A DNA stretch of 64,000 bases from Bacteroidales bacterium (GTDB lineage Bacteria; Bacteroidota; Bacteroidia; Bacteroidales; F082), in NCBI GenBank assembly GCA_017466405.1, contig JAFTUF010000041.1:10119-74118 (forward strand), given 5' to 3'. Position numbers and translations under genes: made by a program. Position 1 is the first letter of the stretch. The number at the start of each line of letters is the position of its first letter. Positions 21,736-38,782 of the stretch are shown here, piece by piece. Under the pieces are notes generated by a model, which saw only the letters and a program-made list of their open reading frames with translations, was not told the origin of the DNA and ran no database searches.

Positions 21736-21937
21736 ATTAAGTTCAAGAACCTGTTTCCTTGTGTTTTGCGAGTGCAAAGGTACAAAATTATTTCAAACGC
21801 ACAACACTTTTTTCAAAAAAAATTAAATATTTTTTAATCTATAAAAATCAAGTAATTACATCCGTAAAACATATCTTCTAAGATTTCTCATCAAGTTATT
21901 TCTCACAAAATGTCTAAGAAAATCTCTCAATATTTAA

Positions 21938-22619: not shown

Positions 22620-23960
22620 TTATCTGACAATGTTAATACGTTTTGTTATAATGCCGTTTTCTGTTGTGATACGAACTAAATAAACTCCATCATTGTATTG
22701 AGAAAGGTTGATGATTGCATTGTCATCACCGACATTATTATCATAAACAATTTGTCCTAAAGCATTGATTATAGAGATATGAGTCATGTCTTTAGACTCG
22801 ATATTTAACTGAGCGACTGCAGGATTAGGATAAATCTTTACATCATCGATTTCGTTTTCTTCAACCGAAGTACCATCAATCTTTGCGGTTTGAGGGCAAG
22901 CCATAAAATAATGTTCATAGTCCTTCTCACCTGCATAAACCACTCTCAATGTATATTCGTCGTCGTTTTGAGCCTCATTGTCAATATAAACCTCTTCAGT
23001 AACAAGTTCCGACAAGAGTTCGTCGTTGCGATATAGAACTGCACCAATAACTTCTGTTATCACAGGTTCTTCGTGCATTTCGACGTAAGCACGAATTTGC
23101 CATGTGTAAGCAGGCATTGAGAGCATAGCAAAGTCCATCCATCCGTAGCCTTCATAATAAATCCAGCGACCGTTTGAGTCACCTTGGTCGGCGCAGGCAG
23201 CAGCAGGCTGTTGTCCGTTATAATTCGTAATGACGACCCAAACATTCTGACTTCCGCTTACTTCCACGGATGTACTCAATGCAATTTCCATATAATCTTG
23301 AGAACCTGTTGTTGAAAACTCTTGACTATATAATAAGGTGCCAGGTTCCGAAGAGCCACCTTCATAAATGAAAACCTCGCCGTTGAACGCCTCGCAGTCG
23401 TAGATAGATACCTTTGTGATAGATTGTCCTGCATAATTTGCCACATCTGAAGCAGGAAACATCACAGCCCACTTAAACGACTCGAAGGTAACGCCGTCGA
23501 AAGTGAGACCTACCGGCATAGAGAAATTACCGTCATCATAATGAAGCCAATTGCCTTCTTTAGAATCTTTAGCATCTTTATAAACTGCAGGTAAGGTCCA
23601 ACTAAGGACACCTACATTATTAATCATACCAGCTGTGAAATTTGTAGCCCCGGCGTACAAGTCACAGCTTTTCTTTGTCCATACATAATCAGCACTTTCT
23701 CCTGAGCCATTAGCGAAGACTGGTATAACGGTAGTCTTATATTCCTGTCCGTCAACGAGGTTTTCATGTTGATAGAATAAAGTTGTCAGTTCTTCAGCAA
23801 CCAATTCGCCATCAAGATAAACCTGATACGATGAAGCATCGTTGAGTTCGTCCCACATCGCCCATCCTGTTGGTGAGACATATAAGTTATTGACAGTTTG
23901 TGCATTAAGCGACACCATCGCAAACATACACATAATAATAAAAGTAAATGTTTTTCTCAT
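22620..23960 (-). CDS. secreted protein with type IX secretion (Por) C-terminal sorting domain
   Basis: 446 aa with a signal peptide. C-terminal KIYPNPAVAQLNIES...GVYLVRITTENGIITKRINIVR is a typical T9SS CTD. Confidence 0.85.
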   Translation of the reverse strand: MRKTFTFIIMCMFAMVSLNAQTVNNLYVSPTGWAMWDELNDASSYQVYLDGELVAEELTTLFYQHENLVDGQEYKTTVIPVFANGSGESADYVWTKKSCDLYAGATNFTAGMINNVGVLSWTLPAVYKDAKDSKEGNWLHYDDGNFSMPVGLTFDGVTFESFKWAVMFPASDVANYAGQSITKVSIYDCEAFNGEVFIYEGGSSEPGTLLYSQEFSTTGSQDYMEIALSTSVEVSGSQNVWVVITNYNGQQPAAACADQGDSNGRWIYYEGYGWMDFAMLSMPAYTWQIRAYVEMHEEPVITEVIGAVLYRNDELLSELVTEEVYIDNEAQNDDEYTLRVVYAGEKDYEHYFMACPQTAKIDGTSVEENEIDDVKIYPNPAVAQLNIESKDMTHISIINALGQIVYDNNVGDDNAIINLSQYNDGVYLVRITTENGIITKRINIVR

Positions 23961-24251: not shown

Positions 24252-24280
24252 TTTGATTTGTTACAAAATAATTAACTTTG
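24252..24280 (+). promoter_or_regulatory. Bacteroidota-type promoter (TTTG ... TAACTTTG) for RNA copy A
   Basis: The -7 box TAACTTTG at 24273-24280 matches TAnnTTTG. TTTG at 24252-24255 lies 17 nt upstream. Confidence 0.6.
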
Positions 24281-24286
24281 TCGCAG

Positions 24287-24509
24287 ATAAACAAAACATA
24301 ATTTTAATGATATAAAAGGTTTGAAATAGACATATTGAAGTAAGTGTTTGCTTATTGCGAGTGATATTCTGAAAATCGCCAAATTAAAATGAATGACCAC
24401 CGCTGCATTAAGTAAGGCTTCGCACTTTGTGCGGACTTTCTTATTTGCGTGGTCGTGGGCGTTTGGCGATGCCCCAGAATAACGAGTAAGATTGTTTCGC
24501 ACTTTTTTT
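24287..24509 (+). ncRNA. structured RNA / 5' leader, copy A (unclassified family)
   Basis: Conserved core 24320-24509 aligns with 25093-25283. It has nested helices (atcgccaaa/tttggcgat, ttctg/cagaa, gaccac(c)gc/gcgtggtc, cgcac/gtgcg) and ends in ttcgcac + T7. Five compensatory pair changes separate it from copy B. Confidence 0.7.
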
Positions 24510-24539
24510 ATTGTCTAAAATCTAATAAGGAACAACGCC

Positions 24540-24698
24540 ATGACCACTGACGAAATCAAAAACCATATTACCATCTCAGAAGAAACAGAACGTGACAAGA
24601 CCGCTTACGAAAGCAGTGAAGAAATATTCGGAAGGATAACATATTTAGAGACAGAGATTTGTGAAGCCATGTTTGAATTCAAGACCAAGTTTATGTAA
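24540..24698 (+). CDS. small hypothetical ORF (52 aa) downstream of RNA copy A
   Basis: Hand-translated as MTTDEIKNHITISEETERDKTAYESSEEIFGRITYLETEICEAMFEFKTKFM*. The stop lies 1 nt before the next ATG. Below the track length cut-off, with no recognisable motif. Confidence 0.3.
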   Translation: MTTDEIKNHITISEETERDKTAYESSEEIFGRITYLETEICEAMFEFKTKFM

Positions 24699-24699
24699 T

Positions 24700-24969
24700 A
24701 TGGAAGAAATCGCCGAAACTGAAATCAAAGAATTTATTTCAATAATAATTGAAAAGAAGAGGCAGCAGTTAAAAGAATACAACCTCCTCACCCACTCCAT
24801 ATTTCATGAGATGTTCGGCGATTCTGCAGGATTTGAAGGAAGTGATGATAAGAAGAAACAGAATTATTCCGAGATTATTAAATCTATCAACAAGCAGAAA
24901 GAGCTGATAGAAAGGTCGATTGAGTTATTAAAAGTCGCTGAGTCTCCGAGTCTCCGAGTCACCAAGTAA
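24700..24969 (+). pseudogene. hsdS: remnant of a type I R-M specificity subunit (HsdS): conserved coiled-coil regions only, no target-recognition domains
   Basis: From ATG at 24700: ...EKKRQQLKEYNLLTHSIFHEMFGDS... matches the HsdS central conserved helix followed by FxEMFGDP. A second helix QKELIERSIELLK follows. The C-terminus runs into the repeat gtctccgagtctccgagtc. Confidence 0.5.
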
Positions 24970-25022: not shown

Positions 25023-25054
25023 TTTGGATTTTAGAATAAAACTAATTACTTTTG
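25023..25054 (+). promoter_or_regulatory. Bacteroidota-type promoter (TTTG-N20-TACTTTTG) for RNA copy B and probably the downstream operon
   Basis: The -7 box TACTTTTG at 25047-25054 and TTTG at 25023-25026. No other TAnnTTTG lies between here and the ATG at 25322. Confidence 0.6.
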
Positions 25055-25059
25055 TCGCA

Positions 25060-25283
25060 AGTAATGAAAAGAGAAATATTATGAAGTAGAATTTTGAAAT
25101 AGACATAATGAAGTAAGTGTTTACTTATTGCCAGTGATGTTCGGAAAATCGCCAAAATGAAGAAATAGTCACTACTGCAATAGGAGATGCTTCGCACCAT
25201 GAGTGCGGACTTTCTTATTTGTGTGACTATAGGCGTTTGGCGATGCCTCCGAATATCAAATAAGGAAGGTTCGCACTTTTTTT
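25060..25283 (+). ncRNA. structured RNA / 5' leader, copy B, immediately upstream of the nine-gene operon
   Basis: Core 25093-25283, paralogous to 24320-24509. Helices agtcac(t)ac/gtgtgact, ttcgg/ccgaa, atcgccaaa/tttggcgat and cgcac/gtgcg. Ends in ttcgcac + T7, 38 nt before the ATG at 25322. Confidence 0.7.
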
Positions 25284-25321
25284 ATTGTGGGTAGTTGTAT
25301 AGAAAAACAAATCTATGTATT

Positions 25322-26674
25322 ATGGAAAAAAGATTTTTACTTGCTTTTTTGCTCATCATCCTTGCAGCTGGATGTAGCAGAAATCCGTCTCGGCAAAGCA
25401 GTGGTAGAGAAAATGTTGAGACAAAAGAAACACTAGAATTAGTTGAAAAAACGGATGTGGAAAATCCAGTAGTTAAACCCACACTCAAAGTCAAACCTGT
25501 AGTAAATATCTACATTGAGAATTCTGGTAGTATGAATGGATTTATAAATAAAACGTCCGAATATCAGGATGCTATTCAAAATATGGTAGTATGGTTAGAA
25601 TACTATTACGATACCGATAATATCAAACTACATTATATCAACGAGCGTGTCATTCTTAAAGAAAAACCAGTAAGTATACCTTTACCAGACTTTGCACAAC
25701 AAATGCTGTCTCCTGTAGAATTTAAATCAAATGGTAATGGCGCATCAACTAATCTTAATAGTATAATAGCGATGATATTAGATCGTACTGACGATAATAC
25801 AATATCTATATTGTTATCAGATAACATTTATTCTATTTCGGGTTCACAAACAGCACCTGTGTTGTTAGCTGAATGTAAAAATAAAACATTACAGGCTTTC
25901 TTGGGAAAAAGCAAGGAACTGAATATGCAACATCAACAAGCTTTATCCACAACAATCATTCAACTACATTCTCAATTTAGTGGTAATTATTGGGATTATA
26001 AACATCCTACTGGAAAAGCATCTCAACAGTTGAATTGTAAGAGACCTTATTATATGTGTGTTATTGGAGTTAATGATTTGATTTCTGATTTTAACAACAA
26101 ATTTAATGTCAATGAAATGAATGGTTACAGAAACAAATACACATTAACAGACATGGAAGAGTTGAATCCTAAATATGGTGTGCTAGTAAACACATATAAG
26201 ACAGGTAGATTTAGGAAAGTAAATGACACAACAATAAGAGAAGCTTCATTAGATGGACGTAAAAACATTTTTGCCTTGGCGATAGCTGTTGATTTGAGTG
26301 AAATACCTCTGAATGATGATGAAAAATGTGATACACGTTTATTTGAAGCAACAGAAGATTATGATATAGAGGAAATTATAAAGATAGATGATGCAACAAT
26401 ATCTCCAGTTGATATGCAAGTGACCAAGAATTGCACACACATAATAAAGGTTTCTACATCAAATAAAACTATTCCTGGTTTTACATTAAAAATGAAAAGA
26501 TTGTTGCCAAATTGGGTGGAAAATACATCATCTGTAGATGATACAAAAATAGGAACTGATACTGAAGAACAAAAACGGACATTTGGTTTAGCATACTTCG
26601 TCAATGGAATAAAAGAAGCATACGACAAAGGAGCTGATAATTATTTTGAAATTAACATTACAGTAAACAAATAA
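25322..26674 (+). CDS. lipoprotein with vWA-like domain (operon gene 1)
   Basis: Start taken at MEKRFLLAFLLIILAAGC (lipobox LAAGC). VVNIYIENSGSMNGFI resembles the vWA beta1-MIDAS motif DxSGSM with E for D, and ISILLSDNIYS resembles the vWA TDG strand. Confidence 0.6.
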   Translation: MEKRFLLAFLLIILAAGCSRNPSRQSSGRENVETKETLELVEKTDVENPVVKPTLKVKPVVNIYIENSGSMNGFINKTSEYQDAIQNMVVWLEYYYDTDNIKLHYINERVILKEKPVSIPLPDFAQQMLSPVEFKSNGNGASTNLNSIIAMILDRTDDNTISILLSDNIYSISGSQTAPVLLAECKNKTLQAFLGKSKELNMQHQQALSTTIIQLHSQFSGNYWDYKHPTGKASQQLNCKRPYYMCVIGVNDLISDFNNKFNVNEMNGYRNKYTLTDMEELNPKYGVLVNTYKTGRFRKVNDTTIREASLDGRKNIFALAIAVDLSEIPLNDDEKCDTRLFEATEDYDIEEIIKIDDATISPVDMQVTKNCTHIIKVSTSNKTIPGFTLKMKRLLPNWVENTSSVDDTKIGTDTEEQKRTFGLAYFVNGIKEAYDKGADNYFEINITVNK

Positions 26675-26684
26675 AAATAAGATT

Positions 26685-27110
26685 ATGATACAAGATTTTA
26701 TTGCAAACATTTACGAACTATGGGGAGCCGCTTATTTTGAAGGTTTCTCTGATGATATGTACAATATCAACGCCTATTTACCTATATTTTTATGGATGAT
26801 TATTTCCATAATTGTTGTAAGTGTAACATATTATTACATAATAAATCATTCGAGATTAAATCGGTGGTATTGGTGGGGATTATTTAATTTGGTCACATCG
26901 TTGTTGAATTTTGGGATAGCATGGGGAGCATCTCATGGAAAATTATTGGATTTATATAATAGTCAAAATATGGATTTCCCATATTCTGCGATGATAGAAT
27001 TTTTCCCATTTGCAGTTATCTGCTTTTGCTGGACATTCGTACTATATTTTGTCTTCTCTATGGTTATAAAATGGGGAAGTAAAAACTGTAAACATTCACC
27101 GTTTTTGTAA
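26685..27110 (+). CDS. small integral membrane protein, 3 predicted TM segments (operon gene 2)
   Basis: 141 aa. Hydrophobic stretches YLPIFLWMIISIIVVSVTYYYII, WYWWGLFNLVTSLLNFGIAWGA and FFPFAVICFCWTFVLYFVFSMVI. Confidence 0.7.
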   Translation: MIQDFIANIYELWGAAYFEGFSDDMYNINAYLPIFLWMIISIIVVSVTYYYIINHSRLNRWYWWGLFNLVTSLLNFGIAWGASHGKLLDLYNSQNMDFPYSAMIEFFPFAVICFCWTFVLYFVFSMVIKWGSKNCKHSPFL

Positions 27111-27127
27111 TTAAAAAAAGTAAAGAT

Positions 27128-28534
27128 ATGAGTAAAGTTTATGTATTTGGAATAGGAGGAACGGGTTCTCGTGTATTGAGATCCTTAACTTTGTTATTAG
27201 CATCAGGTGTTGATTGTGGTAACGACACAATAGTTCCCATAATTATTGATCCAGATGCTTCTGGCGGTGATTTGACAAGAACTGTCTCTCTGATGAGATG
27301 TTATAGTGATATAAGAAAACAACTTGTTTTTGATGGAACAAGTCAAAATGAGTTTTTTAAAACGGAGATAGATCAAGTTGTTCCCGGTTTCCAGTTGCCG
27401 TTAGATAATAAAGTACAAACATTGAAATTTCAAGATTATATGGGAGTAAGTTCTATGACTTCTAATAATCAATGCTTGATGTCAATGTTGTTCTCCGATA
27501 AAAACCTGAGTGCAAATATGAACGTCGGTTTTAAAGGGAATCCAAATATTGGTTCTGTTGTTTTAAATCAGTTTTCTCAATCAGAGGATTTCAAAGCATT
27601 TGCGAACAACTTTCAACAAGGCGATAGAATATTTATTATTAGTTCTATATTTGGAGGAACAGGAGCTAGCGGTTTTCCATTGTTACTTAAAACATTACGT
27701 AGCAATACAAACATTCCAAATTTTGCTTTAATCAACAATGCCATAATAGGTGGAATAACTGTTTTGCCTTATTTTAATGTAAAACAGGATAATAGCAGTG
27801 AAATTGATTCAACCACTTTCATATCAAAAACAAAGTCGGCATTGGCTTATTATGACAAAAATATAAGCGGCAACAATTCTATAGATGCACTATATTATGT
27901 GGCGGATGATATCAATAATGCTTATGATAACCATGAAGGTGGAGGAAATCAAAAGAATGATGCACATATGGTTGAGCTTATTTCAGCCTTAGCTATAATA
28001 GATTTCGTTAATAATATTAACAACAGAATAAATCCAACAATACATAAAGAATTTGGAATTAAAGATTTGCAAAATGGGGCTAATGATGTAATTCTTTCAG
28101 ATTTTGCAAAAGGAACCGAAGATATAATTAAAGATTCTTTGATAAGTATGTTCCTTTTTGCAAAATACAACAATAATTGTTTGGAAAAACAATACGAACA
28201 CCAGCCATGGGCAATAGACAGAAAACTGGATAGAGCGTTCTTTAGAGGCAGTTTCTACAAAAATATAGAAATGATTCAGACTGATTTCTTCGCTTGGTTA
28301 GGGGAATTATCATCTAATAAAAGAAAACTTACCATGTTTGAATTAGGTGATGACTGTGAATTGTTTAAATCAGTTAAAGATTATTCTCCCAAAAAGAGCT
28401 TTGGATTCACAAAAAATTATGCGTTGATTGACAAATGCCTTAATAAACAAGTCCAAAGCGGAACGAATAAGGAACAATTATACATAAACCTATTCTATAG
28501 TGCTTTAAAAGAAGTCGTATCACTAAAATTCTAA
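27128..28534 (+). CDS. tubulin/FtsZ-superfamily-like GTPase (operon gene 3)
   Basis: 468 aa. N-terminal VYVFGIGGTGSRVLRSL matches the FtsZ T1 G-box position. SSIFGGTGASGFPLL is close to the tubulin/FtsZ T4 signature GGGTG(S/T)G. No TM and no FtsZ-type C-terminal tail recognised. Confidence 0.7.
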   Translation: MSKVYVFGIGGTGSRVLRSLTLLLASGVDCGNDTIVPIIIDPDASGGDLTRTVSLMRCYSDIRKQLVFDGTSQNEFFKTEIDQVVPGFQLPLDNKVQTLKFQDYMGVSSMTSNNQCLMSMLFSDKNLSANMNVGFKGNPNIGSVVLNQFSQSEDFKAFANNFQQGDRIFIISSIFGGTGASGFPLLLKTLRSNTNIPNFALINNAIIGGITVLPYFNVKQDNSSEIDSTTFISKTKSALAYYDKNISGNNSIDALYYVADDINNAYDNHEGGGNQKNDAHMVELISALAIIDFVNNINNRINPTIHKEFGIKDLQNGANDVILSDFAKGTEDIIKDSLISMFLFAKYNNNCLEKQYEHQPWAIDRKLDRAFFRGSFYKNIEMIQTDFFAWLGELSSNKRKLTMFELGDDCELFKSVKDYSPKKSFGFTKNYALIDKCLNKQVQSGTNKEQLYINLFYSALKEVVSLKF

Positions 28535-28538
28535 AGTT

Positions 28539-31500
28539 ATGTCTAAAGTTTTCAGATTACATCAGGATAATAATACATTGATTGATTGGCAGCAATCACA
28601 ACCATATAGCACCAATGTTATAAATCAGATAAAAGACCCTAATGGAGCTACTTCAAGAAATGAAATCACTTCAATACCATCACCATTCGCAAGAATAGAC
28701 CTGGTAAAAAGTGCGTTTAAAGAAGTGAATATGTTAGGTCTTGACGGTAATACAATTTACCATAAAATGGTGTCAGATAGTTTGGACATTGGGCAAATAT
28801 TCTTTAATTATCCAAAATTTAAGAATCTTGTAAATGTTGTTTTTTGGGATAAGACTAACGATTTACAAGCTTTAAAGCAATCGACAATAACATCTCATAG
28901 AGTTGTTGGAGAAACACTTGAGATGTATATGCAACAAGATGGCAGTACATATAATTTCAATAATATGCAAAGAATATATATGCTGCAATACATTGGACCT
29001 CAATGCAAGATAAATGATATTATTGGTGCGACATCTCCATGCACATTGTTTTTTAGTTCCGCAAATGATTTATCAAGAATCTCAAATTACATATCCTTTG
29101 ATGGTAATGACAAACCATTTGACAACCAATATCAACCTTTATATAAACGTGATATTGAATATGTCAAATATTTATGTGCTTTAAGAGCATCTTATCCAAT
29201 GTTTGCTGTTGAATTTTCAGAAGTCAATGAATATATAAATCTTACAATAAATAAATTAGGACAAGATATAAATAATCAGGGATTTATTAATCAAATTAGC
29301 ACTTTTGATACTAGTACAATAAATAATTATACCAAACTAGTTGTTAATAACAATAACATTGATGTAATAAATGGCATAACATTATGTGAAGTGCCAAAAG
29401 TTCATGTAAAAAGTGATTTTGAGATTAATTCCACGATATTTGCAGGTGAACAAAAGCCGTTAGTTTTACCGGTTGAAAAAGGCAATCAATATTCTTCGTT
29501 GACTTATACATCTACAGTTTGGAATCCAAACAATTCAGCCCCGTATTTTGACGGCAATCCGTTGGCAAGAAGGACTTTGCCTTCCACAAGTGACGCTCAT
29601 CCATATCTCACAATTAGCGATTTCTTAGAAGATAACATCATTAAGATGCCTTATCGTATGAATGAAAAGGATTATTATGATGGTGGCTTTAACGCAATTA
29701 GTGATGAAAATGAATCATATTTATTGCCATTGAAGAAATTATTTTTTGATTTCTTTACGGTCGACGAGTTATTAGGGACTCTTCCTAACGGACAAAAGAT
29801 GTTCGAGTTTAGAAGTAATGCAGGAGGTATTACTGTAATTTTACGAATTCCTATTCAGAAGAACTATTGTGTTGAGTATAAAAGGATTTATTTGAACAAT
29901 AGTATTGCAGATATTTCAAAGAACTTAGGTGGTGTTATAATCAAGAAATTTGGTCTTGGTATTTTGCCACCCGTTAAGACAGATAATGAACTTTCATATT
30001 ACAGAATAGCGTTATTTGATAAAGGTGATAACAATATTACCTTAACACCATGCATGGGAAAAGATTCTGTTGCTGCTATCAATGTTGTTCATACTCCCAA
30101 AACAAATAAAACATCTGGCGTGGAATCATACATCATTGATAAACATTCTTTTGATAGGATTGAAGTATCAGTTGGTTCAAATATGGCAGTTTTGGTTCCT
30201 ATTTTAAGATCTGCGGTTGGAAATAGGAAATTTACTATTGCCATTGACTTTGGAACTACTAACACTCATATAGAGTACAGTAAAGACAATAATCCATCTT
30301 CTTCATTCTATATCAATACAAATGATATTCAAATCTCAAGATTACATATTGATTATACAGACATTGATATTGATACGTCATTCGACAGATATTTTATTCC
30401 TTCTGTAATTGACGGAGTCGAGTATGGTTATCCAATGAGAACTGTTCTTGCCGAAAGCAATTCAATTAGTTATAATAAACCGGTGTATTCAATGGCTCAT
30501 GCTCATGTTCCATTTAAATATGAGAAAGAAGCTTGTTCAAGATATTATTCTATTAAGACTAACTTAAAATGGTCTAACGAAGAAAGGAAAAGGGTTGAAT
30601 TATATATAGAAAATATTGTTATATTGTTAAGGAACAAAGTTTTGTTAAATGATGGAGACTTATCAAAGACCCAAATTAAATGGTTTTACCCGACAAGTAT
30701 GGTGCAGTATCAGATTGATGGACTGAAGAGAATATGGTGTGACCTATACAAAAAATATTTTGGTAGTGATGTTCAGAATGTTATTGGAATTCCAGAATCG
30801 ATAGCACCTTACAAATATTACAAAACTACACAAGGAGCTCAGTCTAGCGTATTAACAATTGATATTGGAGGTGAAACCAGTGATGTATTTGTAGTTGAAG
30901 ATTCAAAAGCAAAAATGATGTCATCTTTCCGTTTTGCGTCAAACGCAATTTTTGGAGATGCATTCGGATATAATTCTGATAATAATGGTTTCGTATTAGG
31001 GTATCTTGATAAATTCAAAACTATACTTAATGATAATGGATTAAACACATTATCAAATGCTCTTGATGATATTGTAGTTCAGAAAAAATCATCTGACATA
31101 GTTGCATTTTTTTATGCTTTATCCAATAATAAAGAGGTCAAGAAGAAGAATATCACAGCATTGGATTTTCAAGATAAATTATCCAATGACGATTGTTTGA
31201 AATATGTGTTTGTGATGTTCTATACTTCCTTGCTGTATTTTATCGCAAAAGAAATGAAATCAAAGGGACTTAGAATGCCATTGACGATAGCTTTTAGCGG
31301 AAACGGTTCAAATTCTATAAAGATTCTCTCCAATGATACTGTAACATTAAAGAAATATGCACAGATGATATTTGAAGATGTGTATGAAGAAAAATATGCA
31401 AAGGGAGAAATGTTAGATGTAATTTGTGAAGAAAACCCTAAAACCGCAACGTGTAAAGGTGGAATTCTAACAAACAACGATGATGTTGACTTTGATACAG

Positions 31501-31868
31501 ATGAATTAAAATACAATTTGTTAGGAATCAATGCTGTTGATACTATTGACAGTTTTAAGTATAGTGATGTTGACAATAATATCATAAATAAGGTTGTAAA
31601 TCAAGTGGAATCGATGATTGACTATGCCTTGTCTCCTGATAAAATCAAATTTTATATAAAATATTTTGGAGTTAATCAAGGTAAGTCAAATTCCATCAGC
31701 GAATTGACAAAAATTAAACTTCATGAATATGCAAAATCAGCATTAGATGCAAGAAAAGAAGAACTCAAAACATGGAATGCTGATGAAACTTGCAGCTTAG
31801 AAGAAACATTGTTCTTCTATCCTATAATCGGTATGTTAAACAATCTTGCAAGAGAAATAACAAAATAA
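28539..31868 (+). CDS. 1109-aa protein: unknown N-terminal half plus C-terminal actin/Hsp70-like (ASKHA) ATPase (operon gene 4)
   Basis: FTIAIDFGTTNTHIEY (phosphate-1, compare DnaK IDLGTTNS), VLTIDIGGETSDVFVV (phosphate-2 DxGGGTxD) and LTIAFSGNGSNSIKIL (adenosine motif). The first 550 aa or so have no recognisable motif. Confidence 0.75.
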   Translation: MSKVFRLHQDNNTLIDWQQSQPYSTNVINQIKDPNGATSRNEITSIPSPFARIDLVKSAFKEVNMLGLDGNTIYHKMVSDSLDIGQIFFNYPKFKNLVNVVFWDKTNDLQALKQSTITSHRVVGETLEMYMQQDGSTYNFNNMQRIYMLQYIGPQCKINDIIGATSPCTLFFSSANDLSRISNYISFDGNDKPFDNQYQPLYKRDIEYVKYLCALRASYPMFAVEFSEVNEYINLTINKLGQDINNQGFINQISTFDTSTINNYTKLVVNNNNIDVINGITLCEVPKVHVKSDFEINSTIFAGEQKPLVLPVEKGNQYSSLTYTSTVWNPNNSAPYFDGNPLARRTLPSTSDAHPYLTISDFLEDNIIKMPYRMNEKDYYDGGFNAISDENESYLLPLKKLFFDFFTVDELLGTLPNGQKMFEFRSNAGGITVILRIPIQKNYCVEYKRIYLNNSIADISKNLGGVIIKKFGLGILPPVKTDNELSYYRIALFDKGDNNITLTPCMGKDSVAAINVVHTPKTNKTSGVESYIIDKHSFDRIEVSVGSNMAVLVPILRSAVGNRKFTIAIDFGTTNTHIEYSKDNNPSSSFYINTNDIQISRLHIDYTDIDIDTSFDRYFIPSVIDGVEYGYPMRTVLAESNSISYNKPVYSMAHAHVPFKYEKEACSRYYSIKTNLKWSNEERKRVELYIENIVILLRNKVLLNDGDLSKTQIKWFYPTSMVQYQIDGLKRIWCDLYKKYFGSDVQNVIGIPESIAPYKYYKTTQGAQSSVLTIDIGGETSDVFVVEDSKAKMMSSFRFASNAIFGDAFGYNSDNNGFVLGYLDKFKTILNDNGLNTLSNALDDIVVQKKSSDIVAFFYALSNNKEVKKKNITALDFQDKLSNDDCLKYVFVMFYTSLLYFIAKEMKSKGLRMPLTIAFSGNGSNSIKILSNDTVTLKKYAQMIFEDVYEEKYAKGEMLDVICEENPKTATCKGGILTNNDDVDFDTDELKYNLLGINAVDTIDSFKYSDVDNNIINKVVNQVESMIDYALSPDKIKFYIKYFGVNQGKSNSISELTKIKLHEYAKSALDARKEELKTWNADETCSLEETLFFYPIIGMLNNLAREITK

Positions 31869-32641
31869 TGAGTATGAGAAAAGTAATAATATGTATGTTG
31901 ATGGTTTTTGTTTCCATAACAACAATATCTTGTGGTAAAATTAGTCGAAAGGATAAAGTAACACATCCTTCGGAACAATTAAAACAAAAATCAAGAAAAT
32001 CAGAGTCTGGTAATAACCATTTCCTATTGTGGAGCGCATTGATTATTTCTTTGTTTGCTAATGCTGGTTATACCTATGTTTTGTATAACAAAACAAAAGA
32101 ACGTACAGAATCTAGATTACAGAGGTTGAGGAATAATGTCGATAAGTTGGAAAATGATTTTATTTTAGAAAAATCACAACAACATGCAAGAGAAACCACT
32201 CGTAATGGCAGTTCTACTCGATACACATTGATAGACGGCGATATAAACTTAATTGTTGACAGAGTACTTGAATGCATAAACATTGACAAAACCCATGAAA
32301 ATACTTATGATGATGTGGGTAAAAATCCACCGCAACCCAAAACGATAAAGAAATTATATGCCGAAGCAGCTAACAAAGATAATGAGTTTTTTAGAAAGGT
32401 TACAGAATATCAAAGTGAAGACACAATTTATGTTTTGTCATTGATAGATGATAACCGTGCTGAATTTGTTATATGTGATAGCGCCAAAAGCACCATTATA
32501 GGTTGTGAGGATTATTTAAGGAATGTTTGCGATATTATAGGTAGCGGACGCAATATTGAAAATTGTGAACCGGGTATCGCCCAAAAAACAAGCGATGGTT
32601 CTTGGAAGGTTATCGAAAAAGCTAATGTAAAATTCGTGTAA
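31868..32641 (+). CDS. membrane/lipoprotein-like protein with coiled-coil segment (operon gene 5)
   Basis: The ATG at 31868 overlaps the TAA of gene 4 (TAATG). MSMRKVIICMLMVFVSITTISC is a signal/lipobox. Second hydrophobic segment FLLWSALIISLFANAGYTYVLY, then a charged helical region. Confidence 0.6.
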   Translation: MSMRKVIICMLMVFVSITTISCGKISRKDKVTHPSEQLKQKSRKSESGNNHFLLWSALIISLFANAGYTYVLYNKTKERTESRLQRLRNNVDKLENDFILEKSQQHARETTRNGSSTRYTLIDGDINLIVDRVLECINIDKTHENTYDDVGKNPPQPKTIKKLYAEAANKDNEFFRKVTEYQSEDTIYVLSLIDDNRAEFVICDSAKSTIIGCEDYLRNVCDIIGSGRNIENCEPGIAQKTSDGSWKVIEKANVKFV

Positions 32642-32642
32642 A

Positions 32643-34379
32643 ATGGGACACTATTTAATAATAGGAATCATCGTTTTGCTAATTATTGGAGTTCAGATAT
32701 ACTTCTTTAGCAAAACATCAAAAGAGATAAGAAAATTCTCTAACATTTTTCCTAAATCAACAGACAACTTGTATGCTCATGATTCGGAAATTTATGTAAG
32801 AGATTATGAAAATAAGATAGATTACGATATAGATGATAAACTTGATAAATATATCAAGAAACATGATTCAGTTTTTGAAAGAATAATATCGAGCTTAAAT
32901 ACTTATTTGCGAAAAAATAAAGGCGCTGCAAGCGACTATCATCTTATGAAAGATATAGTTGAAAGAAACTGTGATGCCAAAGAAAATGAAATAGATACTC
33001 AAATTCCGACTCCATTATATACAGGTTTGATGGGAACTGTTTTAGGAATCATTGTCGGTGTTGCATTCTTACTTTTTAGTGGTGGATTGTCAGCTTTGTT
33101 GGATAGCAATTATGATTTGATCAATAGCACAACAAATGTAAATGAGATTGTAGGCAGAGAATCTGCACAAGATATTAAAGATGAACATATAATCATCATT
33201 AAAGAAGGTGAATTGATAGATTCTGAACATAAAGCTAGCAAATTGATTGATTATGCGAAGAGAAATAATACCGAAATAAAATTAAAGTCAGATAATTCTG
33301 GAAGTAAAGGTGTTTCAGCTTTATTGAGTGGTATTGCATTAGCAATGATAGCTAGTTTTGTTGGGATTTTGCTTACTACAATAGCGTCATATCGTTTTAA
33401 AGGAGCAAAAAGCAAGGAAGAAGAAGGCAAAGATAAATTCTTAAGTTGGATTCAATCGGAATTGTTGCCGCAATTATCATCCGATGTTTCAGGTACCCTC
33501 GTGAAAATGGGGCAGAATCTCAGAGATTTTAACACTACATTCTCTGAAAATACAAAAGAACTCAGTGCAACATTAGACAAGGTAAATGAATCGTACAGAG
33601 GTCAAGCTGAAGTACTTCAGTCAATAAAAGAATTGAGAATAAATGAAATAGCCACTGCAAACATCACTATTTATGATAAGTTAAAAGATAGTACTCAAGA
33701 ATTAGGAGATGTAACACAACATATTTCAGAATATTCAGAGCAGTTGTCAAAACTTGGAAAGTATCTAAAGAATTCTGAAAAATATCTGATTCAAGTTAAA
33801 GAACTTAACGAGAAACTTGATGAAGGTGAAGAAAGAATGAAAATGATAGAACGACTTGGACAATTCTTTGAGACTGAATTACAACAAATTCAAAATAGAA
33901 AGTCGGAAATGACAAAGGCTGTCGGTATTGTTGATGATGCATTACAAGAAGCTTTAATAAAGATGCAGGAAAATGTCGGCAGACAATTCAATGAACTTGA
34001 AAAATCATCTGCTATACAACAAGACATTCTGCAAGAAAAACTTAAAGAAACGACTGCACTTGTTGATGAACTGAAAAATCTCACAGCAGTTAAAGCAAGT
34101 TTGGATAAAATTGAGAAATCAACTGAAAAAACATCGAATGAGCAAAATAAACGTTTGGACACACTTATATCATCAATAAATATATTAACGTCTGAAATCA
34201 AGAAAGGTAATTCTGTAAATATAGGATTTAATAGCGGTGGTGCTCCCGTAGTAACTAAAAAAATGCCTAAATGGGCAAAAGTGCTGTTAATAATAGGCGG
34301 CTCTTTAGTAAGTCTTACTTGCTTGATAATAATATCTGTTATAGTTCTAAAAGTCCTAAAAGATATAAATATTATTTAA
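32643..34379 (+). CDS. MotA/TolQ/ExbB-like ion-channel protein with long coiled-coil tail and C-terminal TM anchor (ZorA-like; operon gene 6)
   Basis: 578 aa. PLYTGLMGTVLGIIVGVAF and GIALAMIASFVGILLTTIASY resemble the two conserved MotA/ExbB helices (GLLGTVxG; A-x-x-T-T-x-x-G). About 270 aa of heptad-rich sequence follow, then MPKWAKVLLIIGGSLVSLTCLIIISVIVL. Confidence 0.65.
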   Translation: MGHYLIIGIIVLLIIGVQIYFFSKTSKEIRKFSNIFPKSTDNLYAHDSEIYVRDYENKIDYDIDDKLDKYIKKHDSVFERIISSLNTYLRKNKGAASDYHLMKDIVERNCDAKENEIDTQIPTPLYTGLMGTVLGIIVGVAFLLFSGGLSALLDSNYDLINSTTNVNEIVGRESAQDIKDEHIIIIKEGELIDSEHKASKLIDYAKRNNTEIKLKSDNSGSKGVSALLSGIALAMIASFVGILLTTIASYRFKGAKSKEEEGKDKFLSWIQSELLPQLSSDVSGTLVKMGQNLRDFNTTFSENTKELSATLDKVNESYRGQAEVLQSIKELRINEIATANITIYDKLKDSTQELGDVTQHISEYSEQLSKLGKYLKNSEKYLIQVKELNEKLDEGEERMKMIERLGQFFETELQQIQNRKSEMTKAVGIVDDALQEALIKMQENVGRQFNELEKSSAIQQDILQEKLKETTALVDELKNLTAVKASLDKIEKSTEKTSNEQNKRLDTLISSINILTSEIKKGNSVNIGFNSGGAPVVTKKMPKWAKVLLIIGGSLVSLTCLIIISVIVLKVLKDINII

Positions 34380-34380
34380 T

Positions 34381-35058
34381 ATGAAAAAGAATAAAAAAGA
34401 ATCATTCTTTTGGACAAGCTATTCAGATTTGATGACCAGTATGTTTTTTATAATGCTGGTGTTGTTTGTTGTTACAGTAGCCTTGCTTCACAAGGAAATG
34501 GTCAAGATTGGTGAGGAAAGAGAGGCAATGCGTATTGAGAGAGATATTACGCAGGCACAACTTGATAAGATAAAAGAAATTCAGGAGGCAACACAAACCA
34601 TTGATACCACATACTTTAGATTCGATAAAAATTTTAATAGACATACGTTGAGAAACATAACAGTCTCTTTTAATAGATCTAGTTCTAACATAAACGACAT
34701 TCCTCAAGATGTTAGGAATACTTTAGCCGAAGCAGGAAAAGCAATAAGAGAATCTTTGTTAGAAGCACAAAATAAAACTCCGGAAGCAAAATTTTTACTG
34801 ATAATTGAAGGTCAAACATCAAACGATGGTTATGTTGCTAATTACGAGCTCAGTTATAGCAGAGCCCTAAGTCTTGTGAAATTCTGGTCAAGTCAAAAGA
34901 TTTATTTTGACGAAGCAGGTGGTATACATAATTGTGAAGTTATTATTTCAGGTAGCGGAAGGTCTAGTCAATTTAGAGAATTGCCTGATAACAAATATAA
35001 TACTAAAAATCAAAGATTTGTAATTCATATCATTCCAAAGCCGGGAGAAATAAAATGA
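34381..35058 (+). CDS. MotB/OmpA-like stator partner (ZorB-like; operon gene 7)
   Basis: 225 aa. N-terminal FWTSYSDLMTSMFFIMLVLFVV is the MotB-type TM plug with the conserved Asp. C-terminal LLIIEGQTSNDGYVANYELSYSRALSLVKFW is an OmpA-like peptidoglycan-binding motif. Confidence 0.78.
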   Translation: MKKNKKESFFWTSYSDLMTSMFFIMLVLFVVTVALLHKEMVKIGEEREAMRIERDITQAQLDKIKEIQEATQTIDTTYFRFDKNFNRHTLRNITVSFNRSSSNINDIPQDVRNTLAEAGKAIRESLLEAQNKTPEAKFLLIIEGQTSNDGYVANYELSYSRALSLVKFWSSQKIYFDEAGGIHNCEVIISGSGRSSQFRELPDNKYNTKNQRFVIHIIPKPGEIK

Positions 35059-35810
35059 TAAAGAAACTGATATTATGCATTTGCGTACTAGTGCTTTTCT
35101 TTTCTTGTGTAAGAAGACGAGAAGGAGTACATAACTCCAATTCAAGAAATCATTATGCTCAAGAACGAGTTAGAACAAGTAGTAATAGACACAAACCGGT
35201 GAGAACACAAGAAACCAGTCCGATTCAACCTGTAAATAGGGCGGATAACAAAATATTAAATGGTTCTCAGATATTTGAAAAATACAACCCTGCAGTTTTT
35301 ATGATTTTTACTTCTGACGGGTGGAACGATTATCAAGGTTCTGGCTTCTTTGTCACGTCATCTGGAATTGGTGTTAGCAATTATCATGTTTTTGAAGGTA
35401 CGACAGTCGGGTATGAAACAATTAAATTATCAAATGGACAAACATATAAAATAAGAAATGTCATCGCTAAGAGTAAAGATGATGATTTCATTGTGTTTCA
35501 GGTAGAATCTAAAGGAGTTTCGTTTAAATATATACCTATGGGAATAAAGAATCCAAAAGTAGGCGAAAAAGTCTATACAATAGGCAGTCCGTTAGGTTTG
35601 GAAAACACATTCTCGTCAGGAGAAATTTCACAGTTGAGAGAGGATAATTTAATTCAAATCAATGCTCCTATAGATCATGGCAGTAGTGGTGGTGCACTTA
35701 TAAATGAATATGGAGAAGTCATTGGCATTACTACAGCAGGCATAGGAAGTTCAGGAGCAAACCTAAATTTTGCAGTTGATATTGATGTTGTGAGACCGTA
35801 TGTGAGATGA
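35055..35810 (+). CDS. lipoprotein trypsin-like (S1/DegP-fold) serine protease (operon gene 8)
   Basis: ATGA overlap with gene 7. Lipobox LVLFFSC. Catalytic triad context SNYHVFEG (His), DDDFIVFQV (Asp) and DHGSSGGALIN (Ser). Confidence 0.82.
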   Translation: MIKKLILCICVLVLFFSCVRRREGVHNSNSRNHYAQERVRTSSNRHKPVRTQETSPIQPVNRADNKILNGSQIFEKYNPAVFMIFTSDGWNDYQGSGFFVTSSGIGVSNYHVFEGTTVGYETIKLSNGQTYKIRNVIAKSKDDDFIVFQVESKGVSFKYIPMGIKNPKVGEKVYTIGSPLGLENTFSSGEISQLREDNLIQINAPIDHGSSGGALINEYGEVIGITTAGIGSSGANLNFAVDIDVVRPYVR

Positions 35811-35880
35811 AAAAGTTTAGAAATCCTTGAACTAATATTAATATTTATATATCAATGAAGATTCTAAATAATAACCTATT

Positions 35881-36261
35881 ATGAAAACATTTCTCAAAAT
35901 ATTAGCATTCGCTATCTCTATCCCATTGTTTATTTCGGCAACTCCAATAGATTCACAAGATACTGAGACTTACACTATCTATAAAATTTATGAAAAGATT
36001 GAACTCGACAATGGTTCAAAAGTCATTGATAGTTGGGGCAATGTCGAAGATGCAAAAGCCGTTTTGGTTCCAACTGAAATAGACCGCGGAAGATATAGTA
36101 TCGAAATTACACGCATCAGCAGTAACTTGTATCAGATATGCGGAACATCGCTCTATATTGAAACAAAATACTGCTATGAATACGCTACGAGAGAAGAGGT
36201 GCTTTTAAACATCACATCTACTTTCGGATATGACCTCGGAGAAGTGATTTTCTTTGATTGA
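35881..36261 (+). CDS. small secreted protein, unknown function (operon gene 9)
   Basis: 126 aa with signal peptide MKTFLKILAFAISIPLFISA. No motif recognised. It lies 70 nt after gene 8. Confidence 0.55.
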   Translation: MKTFLKILAFAISIPLFISATPIDSQDTETYTIYKIYEKIELDNGSKVIDSWGNVEDAKAVLVPTEIDRGRYSIEITRISSNLYQICGTSLYIETKYCYEYATREEVLLNITSTFGYDLGEVIFFD

Positions 36262-36418: not shown

Positions 36419-36443
36419 TATTCGTGGATAAAATCCATTAGGG

Positions 36444-36842
36444 GGTGGAGCTGGAGGGAGTCGAACCCTCGTCCAAACAAGGAACACCCATGCTTTCTAC
36501 ATGCTTATTTTGTTGTTGTTTTTCGAATCATGCAAGGAAACAAACACCCTAAACATAACCTTATCTCCTAAACTTCGCTATGCGGCCGGAGCTTCCGCAT
36601 CGCTATCCCGAAATTGATGAGCACCTCGTACCCGGACCGGAATCAGGAAAGTCCATCCGCGAGATGTCCCGTTCATCCACCTTGTGGACGAATTAAGCTT
36701 CAATCTACTGTGCTTCGATTAAGCAGCGAGAGCGTAGTTATTTTCGCCAATTAATTTTTCGCAGCCAAGATTTATGAGCTTCACTGCAAGGCTCAGCATG
36801 CTTACATGACCATTCTACAAGCTGTCAAAACCGGTCAACCCC
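36444..36842 (-). ncRNA. ssrA: tmRNA
   Basis: The reverse complement starts GGGGTTGACCGGTTTTGACAGC and ends GGACGAGGGTTCGACTCCCTCCAGCTCCACC. G3-U70 in the acceptor stem. Tag reading frame GGCGAAAATAACTACGCTCTCGCTGCTTAA encodes GENNYALAA*. Confidence 0.95.
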
Positions 36843-36895: not shown

Positions 36896-37141
36896 TTCGT
36901 CCATACAATACAACCCAATGACATTTTTGGAATTGCAAAGGTACACTTTTTTTGATTACCCTTGATATTTAACAAGTATTATTTTTTATTGTTTTATGAA
37001 CTTGTTCGTTGAATAGTTTTAACCACAGATTACACTGATTATCACTGATTCAATTTTTTATAACTGTCTACGAATTGACACAAATTGGCACGAATTACAT
37101 GTTACAGATTTGTGTTTCATTAGTGAGATTAGTGGTCAGAA

Positions 37142-38305
37142 CTAATTCATTAGCGGCTGCACATATTTCCTCACATCGTCTCCACCGATTTTGTTTCCGC
37201 ATAAAATTACAAGTCTTTCTATGACATTATGCAGTTCGCGGATGTTACCTGTCCAGCGATATTTTTGCAGTTCTTCTATCGCATCTTGTGTAAAGACAGG
37301 GACTTGTTTTCCCATCTCTGATGAAATATTCTCGACAAAATAATTTATCAACTCTGGAATGTCGTCCAACCTATCGCGTAACGGCGGCACATTGATAATT
37401 ATCACACTCAGACGATGATATAGGTCTTCCCTGAAGTTACCTTTCTGTATCTCTTCTTTGAGATTCTTATTCGTGGCAGCTATGATTCTCACATTGACAT
37501 TTATCTCGCTCTCTCCTCCTACCCTCGTTATCTTGTTTTCTTGTAATGCTCTCAACACCTTAGCCTGAGCCGAGAGACTCATATCGCCTATCTCATCTAA
37601 AAACAGAGTCCCGTTATTGGCGAGTTCAAAGTCGCCTTTTTTCATCTTAATCGCTGAAGTGAACGAGCCTTTCTCATGACCAAACAACTGACTTTCTATC
37701 AACTCCGATGGTATCGCAGCACAGTTAACTTCTATGAAAGGTGCGTAGGAACGATTGCTCATCTCATGAAGACGACGTGCAACGAGTTCTTTTCCAGTGC
37801 CATTCTCGCCTTCTATAAGAACTCTGGCATTCGTCGGCGCTACCTTATCTATAATATCTAGAACCTCATTCATCGCAGCAGAACTTCCAATCATCTCATA
37901 CTTGCGACTGACGACTTTCTTCAAGGCTTTCGTCTCCGACATAAGTTTTGATTTGTCGAGAGCATTACGCAAAGTAATGAGCATTCTGTTTAAATCCGGC
38001 GGTTTAGAAATATAATCGAAGGCACCTTTTTTTATTGCCTCAACGGCGGTCTCTATAGTGCCATGACCAGAAATCATTATTATCGGTGCTTCGCTAATCT
38101 TCTTTGCTTCCTCAAGAAACTCTATGCCGTCCATCTGAGGCATTTTGATGTCGCACAATATCGCATCATATTCATTTTCTTTTACTAAAGGAAGTGCTTC
38201 AATAGCAGATGAAGCGTCATCAACTTGATATTGTTCGTGTTCTAAAATCTCACGCAGTATGCGTCGGATAGCAGCTTCGTCGTCAATTACTAAAATCTTT
38301 GCCAT
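37142..38305 (-). CDS. sigma-54-dependent response regulator (REC + AAA+), apparently lacking a C-terminal HTH
   Basis: REC domain ILVIDDE...DIKMP. Walker A GENGTGKEL, GAFTGA-variant GSFTSA, and FREDLYHRL. The protein ends about 20 aa after the AAA+ module. ATG at 38305; the track start at 38311 is a TTG. Confidence 0.85.
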   Translation of the reverse strand: MAKILVIDDEAAIRRILREILEHEQYQVDDASSAIEALPLVKENEYDAILCDIKMPQMDGIEFLEEAKKISEAPIIMISGHGTIETAVEAIKKGAFDYISKPPDLNRMLITLRNALDKSKLMSETKALKKVVSRKYEMIGSSAAMNEVLDIIDKVAPTNARVLIEGENGTGKELVARRLHEMSNRSYAPFIEVNCAAIPSELIESQLFGHEKGSFTSAIKMKKGDFELANNGTLFLDEIGDMSLSAQAKVLRALQENKITRVGGESEINVNVRIIAATNKNLKEEIQKGNFREDLYHRLSVIIINVPPLRDRLDDIPELINYFVENISSEMGKQVPVFTQDAIEELQKYRWTGNIRELHNVIERLVILCGNKIGGDDVRKYVQPLMN

Positions 38306-38307
38306 AA

Positions 38308-38745: not shown

Positions 38746-38748
38746 AAA

Positions 38749-38782
38749 CAATTTACAATTGACAGTTTACAATTAACAATTA
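38749..38782. repeat. TTGACAA-family heptamer array
   Basis: caatttacaattgacagtttacaattaacaatt. Confidence 0.75.

Follow-up and report, generated by a model that had tools for sequence, protein, structure and literature searches.

Ion-driven units of the MotAB family power envelope work or an actin-like cytoskeleton in TolQR-Pal, ExbBD-TonB and AglRQS-MreB (PMC12505986). In Zorya, an adjacent MotA-like/MotB-like pair, ZorA and ZorB, serves as a wall-anchored ion motor that senses infection. The FtsZl1 operons encode a divergent FtsZ/tubulin-like GTPase together with membrane or secreted partners and OmpA-domain partners; they are uncharacterised and predicted to act in membrane remodelling (PMC2875224). 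FtsZl1 proteins are about 900-1100 amino acids (aa) long and combine a coiled coil with a helical C-domain; from the Bacteroidales, the published list names just BACCAC_02057 of B. caccae (913 aa), which lies in a different three-gene operon, while the entries given as 'B. capillosus' have about 1100 aa and belong to other operons (PMC2875224). Here, we describe a gene cassette at positions 25322-36261 of a stretch of 64,000 nucleotides (nt) of Bacteroidales DNA (contig JAFTUF010000041.1 of assembly GCA_017466405.1; the whole stretch is hereafter called the window). In this cassette, genes for a predicted tubulin-fold GTPase, a predicted actin-fold ATPase and a Zorya-like stator pair adjoin genes for envelope and exported proteins. 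What is conserved is a core of seven genes, g1-g7, followed by a slot for exported hydrolases. The cassette is horizontally mobile in Bacteroidota, where its distribution is patchy, and as far as the tools can tell it matches no named system.

Gene Layout and Conservation

Nine open reading frames (ORFs), g1 to g9, lie on the forward strand of the window:

g1, 25322-26674, + strand: 450-aa lipoprotein, extracytoplasmic
g2, 26685-27110, + strand: 141-aa small integral membrane protein
g3, 27128-28534, + strand: 468-aa cytoplasmic GTPase, predicted to belong to the tubulin/FtsZ superfamily
g4, 28539-31868, + strand: 1109-aa cytoplasmic protein with a predicted actin/Hsp70-fold C-terminal half
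g5, 31868-32641, + strand: 257-aa bitopic protein
g6, 32643-34379, + strand: 578-aa ZorA-like subunit of the MotA/ExbB family
g7, 34381-35058, + strand: 225-aa ZorB-like subunit of the MotB family
g8, 35055-35810, + strand: 251-aa exported serine protease lipoprotein, trypsin/HtrA-like
g9, 35881-36261, + strand: 126-aa small secreted protein

An earlier note on this DNA, made from the sequence alone, had described these ORFs as one envelope-spanning operon. Its coordinates and spacings were reproduced: the successive gaps measure 10, 17, 4, -1, 1, 1, -4 and 70 nt, and at the g4-g5-g6-g7-g8 junctions stop and start codons overlap or stand 1 nt apart. The motifs that it quoted for g1, g3, g4 and g7 are all present, and most of them are invariant among homologues. 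The proteins g3 and g4 are 100% identical to IJZ06_06235 and IJZ06_06240 of a Bacteroidales metagenome-assembled genome (MAG).

The order g1-g2-g3-g4-g5-g6-g7 recurs in more than 80 independent loci, so the arrangement reflects more than chance; a lack of conserved co-occurrence, which the earlier note had held up against its own reading, is not what was found. Among the 61 loci having enough flanking sequence, g4 is present in 60, g1 and g2 in 59 each, g6 and a g5-like positional homologue in 57 each, and g7 in 48 by ORF calling, with five more found by tblastn. Identity to the window proteins in tblastn comparisons is 42-54% for g3, 32-53% for g4, 31-58% for g7, 26-43% for g6 and 21-35% for g1. 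For g5, the fastest-evolving component, it is usually undetectable, and tblastn finds g5 in only about 10 of 80 loci. The idea of a nine-gene unit thus survives in part: a conserved unit exists, consisting of g1-g7 plus the hydrolase slot, and g9 falls outside it.

Scanning genomes with the g3 alignment turned up relatives in 583 or more species. Cultivable carriers include Paludibacter propionicigenes WB4 (locus Palpr_2047), Parabacteroides distasonis An897, Lepagella muris and Flavobacterium/Maribacter strains. The carriers among the matches listed are Bacteroidales, Flavobacteriales and Cytophagales, together with one Leptospiraceae MAG, and the Bacteroidota include gut and rumen Bacteroidales as well as marine Flavobacteriia. 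Bacteroidales-type cassettes also occur in MAGs labelled Oscillibacter, Sphaerochaetaceae, Clostridiaceae, Acetatifactor and Methanomethylophilaceae (loci L023, L030, L060, L064, and L065). Since these keep the same gene order and 45-49% g3 identity, they are probably mis-binned contigs, which is likelier than transfer across phyla.

The cytoskeletal core and the stator-effector module are separable, yet almost always joined in Bacteroidota. Their separability follows from two kinds of loci. Cyanobacterial plasmids and chromosomes (Picosynechococcus, Synechocystis, and Snowella) carry a g1-g5-like array without stator or hydrolases, with genes for proteins of about 441, 166, 502, 1086 and 399 aa (L099 on Picosynechococcus plasmid NZ_CP016489.1, L101 in Synechocystis sp. 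LKSZ1, and L102), and a few Bacteroidota loci have other genes in place of g6/g7. Some loci have further genes between g5 and g6. A Uma2 endonuclease gene separates g3 from g4 in L101, and one cyanobacterial g4 relative (P0424) carries a fused Ser/Thr kinase domain.

The Stator Pair

Profile comparisons confirmed the proposal of the earlier note that g6 and g7 form a MotA/MotB-type pair of ZorA/ZorB-like character, predicted to be nearest to the Zorya stator. The protein g7 matches the PADLOC model ZorB1 at 5.9e-15. The best PDB matches of its family profile are the Shewanella type I ZorB 8VVN_B (5e-16; PMC11890865) and the E. coli ZorB 8QYD_F (4e-9), with flagellar MotB behind both at 1e-5. 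The aspartate to which the earlier note had pointed, Asp16 in the motif YSDLMT, lies at the cytoplasmic end of the single transmembrane (TM) helix and is invariant among homologues, and the C-terminal domain matches OmpA/MotB peptidoglycan-binding domains with a conserved N..LS..RA motif. With only 33.8 bits against the NCBIfam ZorB1 equivalog, for which the cut-off is 400, g7 is judged by these comparisons to be a relative of ZorB, not an orthologue.

For g6, the layout consists of three N-terminal TM helices, a helical tail of about 290 residues and a C-terminal TM anchor at residues 550-568. The PADLOC model ZorA2 is matched at 1.3e-5 by the window protein and also by 9 of 35 relatives; other ZorA1/2/3 models are matched by one to seven relatives each, down to 3e-9. 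The Pfam family MotA_ExbB reaches 19.2 bits, under its cut-off of 22.9, and the g6 family profile gave only coiled-coil noise against the PDB, the tail being seen as long helical or coiled-coil matches. The resemblance to ZorA is therefore weak overall. The pair may form an A5B2 ion-conducting motor, of which the Asp and the TM layout are the only conserved elements.

The Cytoplasmic NTPases

The AlphaFold2 model of g3 has a predicted local distance difference test score (pLDDT) of 84 and a predicted template modelling score (pTM) of 0.89. Its best Foldseek matches are tubulins, CetZ and FtsZ (probability 1.0, E 1e-5 to 1e-4), with modest TM-scores of 0.24-0.40. Residues G8-G13 of the T1 loop GIGGTGS and the T4 loop GGTGASG (G176-G182) are invariant in 34 relatives, and the Pfam families Tubulin (24.3 bits, cut-off 33) and Tubulin_2 (21.1 bits, cut-off 27) match below threshold. 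The model thus confirmed the assignment of g3, made earlier from its loops, as a predicted tubulin/FtsZ-fold GTPase, and it is a member of a short tubulin-like family set apart from FtsZl1. The protein may form filaments; for polymerisation via the T7 loop, no equivalent of this loop was assigned with confidence.

The ATPase half that had been proposed for g4 was likewise confirmed by modelling (pLDDT 86, pTM 0.74), in that the C-terminal half (residues about 560-1000) is predicted to be an actin/Hsp70-fold (ASKHA) ATPase domain with intact ATP-binding motifs. Foldseek matched this half to MreB, the nucleotide-binding domain of Hsp70, actin and ParM at 1e-8 to 1e-6. Invariant residues occur in the phosphate-1 motif DFGTTNT (D570, G572, T573, and N575), the phosphate-2 motif DIGGETSD (D775, G777, G778, T780, and D782) and the adenosine motif (S920, G921, and G923). 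The window protein has no Pfam match and no PDB sequence match, and for its α/β N-terminal half Foldseek found nothing similar in the PDB and BFVD. The disordered N-terminus holds the invariant peptide T44 S45. P47 S48 P49 F50 A51 R52. D54 L55, and residues 44-55 could serve as a docking motif.

A profile search of the g3 family against 1.84 billion representative proteins yielded 2179 clusters at 50% identity. Two of them are end-to-end g3+g4 fusions, P0364 (1554 aa) and P0379 (1534 aa), seen at the protein level only, where gene-calling read-through is possible. The two differ from one another, and their low identity to the window g4 (only 28-32%) points to fusion events that were independent or ancient. 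As natural fusions exist, g3 and g4 probably act as one complex.

The Envelope Proteins

The lipoprotein g1 carries the lipobox AAGC with Cys18. In its motif ENSGSM, the residues E66, S70 and M71 are invariant, and E66-x-x-x-S70...D167 forms an invariant, MIDAS-like constellation. The vWA domain that the earlier note had read from this motif found no profile support: the window protein has no Pfam match, only 1 of 33 relatives matches the vWA family (E=0.039), and the g1 family profile has no match among PDB sequences, which leaves the motif itself as the basis of the claim. The membrane protein g2 has about three TM segments across its family and no match in Pfam, NCBIfam or PADLOC. The bitopic protein g5 consists of a signal or lipobox N-terminus, an extracytoplasmic segment, a TM helix, a cytoplasmic coiled-coil region and a conserved C-terminal domain. 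Its extracytoplasmic segment differs between loci in length and sequence, and the internal TM helix lies anywhere from residue ~38 to ~236.

The Hydrolase Slot

The position after g7 is a variable slot, in which a protease is present in 49 of 67 loci. The enzymes found there are trypsin-like proteases (31 loci), retropepsin-like aspartic proteases, which are unrelated to the former (20 loci), the nucleases Endonuclease_NS (13 loci), SNase (7 loci) and EEP (6 loci) and, as an addition in one locus, a GH25 lysozyme. The nucleases are added or substituted in about 20 loci, and most slot enzymes bear signal peptides or lipoboxes. Exchange of effectors for non-homologous ones while the core stays fixed is a typical trait of conflict systems. 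In the window the slot is filled by g8, whose description as a trypsin-like lipoprotein held: it matches Pfam Trypsin_2 at 6e-22, has the lipobox FFSC and the active-site motif GSSGG, and gives NCBIfam matches of the Do/HtrA type below their cut-offs.

For g9, a signal peptide is predicted, and Pfam, NCBIfam, PADLOC and PHROGs hold no matching family. Its inclusion in the operon is not borne out by conservation, a homologue being found in only one other locus (L065) among about 85. The protein is lineage-specific cargo outside the conserved family, possibly a partner or inhibitor of the protease. A small membrane protein of about 100 aa (Pfam DUF6804), absent from the window, adjoins the cassette in 14 loci, placed directly before g1 or behind the hydrolases (e.g., L003:7949-8242, L014:18513-18827, L019, L069, and L072).

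A Candidate Regulatory RNA

Comparison of the regions upstream of g1 among loci revealed a structured RNA leader, which is present in the window in two copies as scored with the covariance model R1 of this family:

RNA leader, 25195-25292, + strand: ends 30 nt before the start of g1; 57.8 bits, E=1.3e-8
Second, weaker leader copy, 24421-24518, + strand: 44.9 bits, E=6.6e-6

The leader is an element of about 100 nt with two nested helices around a conserved internal region, followed by a U-tract. RNAalifold on the family alignment (A9) gave 17 pairs, 13 of them with compensatory changes; 92.9% of the alignment cells are paired, compared to 40-53% when the partners are slid by one to three columns, and none of 500 shuffles reached the observed covariation. 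In 1.7 Mb of loci, the covariance model found 33 matches. On the strand of g1, 24 of them precede this gene by 27-370 nt (loci L008-L097; for example L067:8114-8227, L018:8084-8197, and L097:8096-8205). One match belongs to a distant variant with only 34% g3 identity. With no match in Rfam 15, the leader is a candidate new cis-regulatory RNA family specific to the cassette. Its position and shape argue that it is probably a conditional terminator or attenuator in the 5' leader.

Both copies in the window are embedded in a direct repeat of about 195 nt (24320-24514 and 25093-25288), 774 nt apart and 83-90% identical, and both repeat copies fold as long hairpins (z=-8.6 for 25090-25290 and z=-4.2 for the upstream copy). 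A TAnnTTTG box of the Bacteroidota type is found about 40 nt upstream of each repeat copy (24273-24280 and 25047-25054). The repeats bracket two short ORFs, 24541-24699 and 24700-24969. Among the promoter and terminator scans, those for sigma-70 were uninformative for Bacteroidota.

Comparison With Described Systems

Compared with Pfam, NCBIfam, PADLOC and PHROGs, the nine proteins gave only generic ZorA/ZorB, trypsin and weak tubulin matches. Searches of the open-access literature and bioRxiv found no description of the cassette and no link of ZorAB-like stators with tubulin-like or actin-like proteins. These searches agree with the earlier note, which had recognised no described system in the locus.

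Zorya is approached by the stator. The cassette shares with it an adjacent MotA-like/MotB-like pair, a B subunit with a TM Asp and a peptidoglycan-binding domain for which the ZorB structures 8VVN and 8QYD are the nearest solved, an A subunit with a long helical C-terminal tail, and the character of mobile accessory cargo. However, the tail of g6 ends in a TM helix, the partners are a predicted tubulin-fold GTPase and actin-fold ATPase, two membrane proteins and a lipoprotein, and the effectors are exported hydrolases, whereas those of Zorya are cytoplasmic nucleases or helicases. Any PADLOC candidate system was considered and rejected, and so were Zorya types I-III, as the ZorB equivalog threshold is far missed and models for ZorC, ZorD, ZorE, ZorF and ZorG found no match at E<=0.1 among the nine proteins; the earlier note, too, had seen no ZorC/D/E-type partner.

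The FtsZl1 operons, which the earlier note had named as the nearest match, share with the cassette a divergent tubulin-like GTPase with envelope partners, a weak Tubulin_2 signal, which is found in g3 and its relatives, and an OmpA-family partner, represented here by the C-terminal domain of g7. In contrast to FtsZl1 proteins, g3 has 468 aa and lacks the coiled coil and the helical C-domain; of the divergent P-loop GTPase and/or Ser/Thr kinase partners of FtsZl1, none is found in g1-g9 by Pfam and NCBIfam; for the vWA partner with a MIDAS motif, g1 offers the invariant E66/S70/D167 but no verified vWA domain; and neither an actin-fold partner, as predicted for g4, nor a ZorA-like subunit or a hydrolase slot belongs to the FtsZl1 operons. 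The suggestion was therefore dropped, because the architecture of g3 is different, its Tubulin_2 score falls short of the 27-bit cut-off, the family is missing from the list of Makarova and Koonin, and the Bacteroides gene in that list and its operon are different ones. In two distant loci (L001:20844-21407, from Paludibacter, and L096:943-1773), the cassette has as a neighbor a protein of about 278 aa containing a DnaJ-type CXXCXGXG zinc-finger region, which recalls the DnaJ-Cys-rich fusions noted near FtsZl1 genes (Makarova and Koonin, PMC2875224).

The pair g3-g4 resembles FtsZ-FtsA, in that a gene for a tubulin-fold GTPase stands beside, and is sometimes fused to, a gene for an actin-fold ATPase; the cyanobacterial g4 relatives match the Pfam FtsA domain (PF14450), and the invariant peptide in the disordered part of g4 could be the counterpart of a docking motif. 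Unlike FtsZ-FtsA, the cassette is accessory and mobile and no cell-division pair, and g4 is three times larger, with an N-terminal half that resembles nothing known. With TolQR-Pal, ExbBD-TonB and AglRQS-MreB the cassette has in common a MotAB-family unit near envelope work or an actin-like protein, but the sequence of g7 is nearer to ZorB, no TolA/TonB-like partner was recognised, and the gene content differs.

Mobility and Genomic Neighborhood

Immediately upstream of g1, a locus of the Parabacteroides type encodes a MobA/VirD2 relaxase and a tyrosine integrase, and integrases recur upstream of the cassette in further loci. The cassette is found on eleven IMG/VR contigs, at least one type of which resembles a mobilisable integrative element more than it does a phage. 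The cassette has no match among GenBank phages, and PHROGs holds no family matching its proteins, the protease excepted. The plasmid search found relatives on a 1.77-Mb Prevotella replicon and on cyanobacterial plasmids. In the window, G+C is 0.31-0.33 across 24-36 kb and 0.39-0.40 in both flanks, in agreement with the AT-rich composition reported earlier.

The genes around the cassette vary by locus. Some loci have WYL, HepT/MNT, Fic and HsdM genes, others integrase, HTH and WYL_2 genes, and further loci plain housekeeping genes; overall, heterogeneous housekeeping genes make up most of the flanks, joined by integrases, relaxases and a few restriction-modification (R-M) or toxin-antitoxin (TA) genes. 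Of the island suggested earlier, the defence context is only weakly supported across loci. The neighbors of the cassette in the window are as follows:

22620-23960, - strand: 446-aa protein with a C-terminal sorting domain (Por_Secre_tail) of the type IX secretion system (T9SS)
36443-36842, - strand: tmRNA gene, 182 nt past g9
37142-38311, - strand: sigma-54 response regulator, 4-nt overlap with the retropepsin-like gene
38308-38751, - strand: retropepsin-like Asp protease, cytoplasmic-looking
38862-39569, - strand: SLOG/LOG-family protein
39638-40075, - strand: PIN protein
40622-41707, - strand: DUF2027/Smr protein
41864-42643, + strand: EcoRV-type endonuclease, 1e-106
42644-43711 and 43716-44696: two ORFs after the EcoRV-type endonuclease

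The operon accordingly lies next to ssrA, as had been said. An ssrA-integrated island with att repeats was rejected, since the 3' end of the tmRNA is not repeated in 20-37 kb; the drop in G+C is real. The EcoRV-type endonuclease, the PIN protein and the SLOG/LOG protein lie 2.5-6 kb downstream of the cassette. This bears out the PIN module of the earlier note and, of the R-M pair named there, the endonuclease. The hsdS remnant reported at 24661-24969 matches no Pfam family at E<=1e-3; the short upstream ORFs at 24541-24969 contain an HsdS-like stretch, 'LFHEMFGD', and likewise lack a Pfam match. A 21-nt motif (TTTTGCGAGTGCAAAGGTACA-like, 86% identical) occurs at 21764-21784 and 36925-36945, just upstream of the minus-strand tRNA-Val gene and the tmRNA gene, and may be a common promoter element of stable RNA genes. 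The Por_Secre_tail protein indicates that the host has a T9SS; Pfam finds this sorting domain in none of the nine cassette proteins.

Possible Functions of the Cassette

Since the stators are of the Zorya type, the effectors are swapped between loci and the carriage is mobile, a role against invaders is favored. The hypervariable g5, the patchy distribution with neighbors that change from locus to locus, the R-M, TA, WYL or Fic genes around some loci, the low G+C and the regulatory leader also speak for it. We tentatively read the cassette, at slightly less than an even chance, as a new mobile, envelope-spanning conflict system, likeliest anti-phage or anti-invader, whose three modules are expressed from one regulated promoter. 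As in Zorya, local damage to the wall would cause g7 to bind peptidoglycan, the ion channel to open and g6 to turn. The tail of g6, tethered to the membrane by its C-terminal helix, would pass this motion to the g3-g4 NTPase pair, which would assemble with g2 and g5 at the spot of damage on the inner membrane. The proteins g5 and g1 would pass this state on to the other side of the membrane, licensing the exported protease as well as the nucleases or lysozyme where present, and the licensed enzymes would destroy components of the invader in the periplasm or autolyse the infected cell. The leader RNA would hold the operon off until the need arises.

A number of observations weigh against such a conflict system. 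The open-access and bioRxiv literature reports no phenotype for any homologue, none of g1-g5 finds a match among the defence and candidate models of PADLOC, housekeeping genes surround several loci, and a Pfam census of 144 flanking genes showed no strong enrichment of defence islands. Zorya employs cytoplasmic nucleases, whereas the effectors here are exported, and how a periplasmic nuclease or protease could stop a phage is not evident. The stator is missing in the cyanobacterial version and in a few Bacteroidota loci, which means that the core can do without it. Signalling direction, 5:2 stoichiometry, filaments and the contact of g6 with g3/g4 are steps that we infer.

The exported nature of the effectors also fits with a machine for membrane remodelling or vesicle formation, in which the tubulin-like and actin-like NTPases would deform the inner membrane or envelope, the stator would power or anchor them, and lipoprotein hydrolases would be released or delivered, for instance packed in outer-membrane vesicles, to scavenge nutrients or attack competitors. 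Every effector is an exported or lipoprotein hydrolase, and such hydrolases are a typical cargo class of Bacteroidota vesicles. This reading would extend the idea of Makarova and Koonin, who predicted that FtsZ-like operons having OmpA-domain partners remodel membranes (PMC2875224). The predicted pair of tubulin and actin folds recalls the constriction of membranes by FtsZ-FtsA, the stator homologues TolQR and ExbBD energise periplasmic and outer-membrane processes (PMC12505986), and many loci lie among housekeeping genes, outside defence islands. Nevertheless, a patchy distribution, carriage on mobile elements and a foreign-looking G+C suit conflict cargo better than physiological export, and the stator is nearest to that of Zorya rather than Tol/Exb. 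The residues after the lipobox of g8 are basic, which would not fit the acidic signal for surface export, and no link to T9SS or known vesicle genes was found. We regard this explanation as rather unlikely, though it is the main rival of the conflict system. If, on the other hand, the stator belonged to the cytoskeletal apparatus as a mover of tracks, the cassette could be an accessory of surface motility, adhesion or secretion, like AglRQS-MreB gliding or GldLM/T9SS. A stator beside a predicted actin-fold protein does parallel AglRQS-MreB, and the host has T9SS substrates, such as the Por_Secre_tail protein mentioned above. However, non-motile gut Bacteroidales carry the cassette, its occurrence within clades is patchy, none of its products has a T9SS sorting domain, and a variable cargo of nucleases, proteases and lysozyme is not expected for motility, which makes this role very improbable.

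The separability of the core bears on whether there is a single machine at all. Two independent modules might simply travel together, a 'cytoskeletal' one, g1-g5, and a minimal Zorya-like defence consisting of stator and exported hydrolase. The occurrence of g1-g5 without g6/g7 or hydrolases in cyanobacteria and some Bacteroidota loci would agree with this, as would the genes that at times intervene between g5 and g6. Against it stand the co-occurrence of both parts in the same order in 57 of the 61 loci with enough sequence, the tight coupling of the g4-g8 stop and start codons in the window, and the single leader RNA, which lies upstream of g1 only. Stand-alone g6-g7-protease loci were not seen, in data that were not searched specifically for them. 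On balance, independence of the two modules appears improbable.

Implications

Conservatively, the cassette is filed with the Zorya-like stator systems and the FtsZ-like envelope operons, but the chance that it represents a new machine class is substantial. In its fullest form, which we regard as a real possibility at rather less than an even chance, this would be an unrecognised class of prokaryotic envelope machine in which an FtsZ/FtsA-like pair, mechanically coupled to a Zorya-type ion-driven rotary motor, acts with it to control exported proteases and nucleases, under a riboregulatory leader of its own. Such a machine could be a cytoskeleton-based immune device or a device for envelope excision or vesiculation. 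Its five-gene core, being shared with cyanobacteria, would be older than the motor and separable from it.

If the cassette is a conflict system of this kind, it would extend the Zorya principle, a wall-anchored ion motor as infection sensor, to different downstream machinery, and it would show for the first time that tubulin-like and actin-like NTPases cooperate with a stator outside division and motility. The modules offer clear targets for point mutants, the fusions of g3 with g4 lead one to expect a complex, a version without the stator occurs in nature for comparison, and the new leader RNA may reveal the signal that switches the operon on. As the cassette is found in hundreds of Bacteroidota species, a role in phage resistance, vesicle formation or competition would bear on the ecology of the microbiome and on phage therapy.

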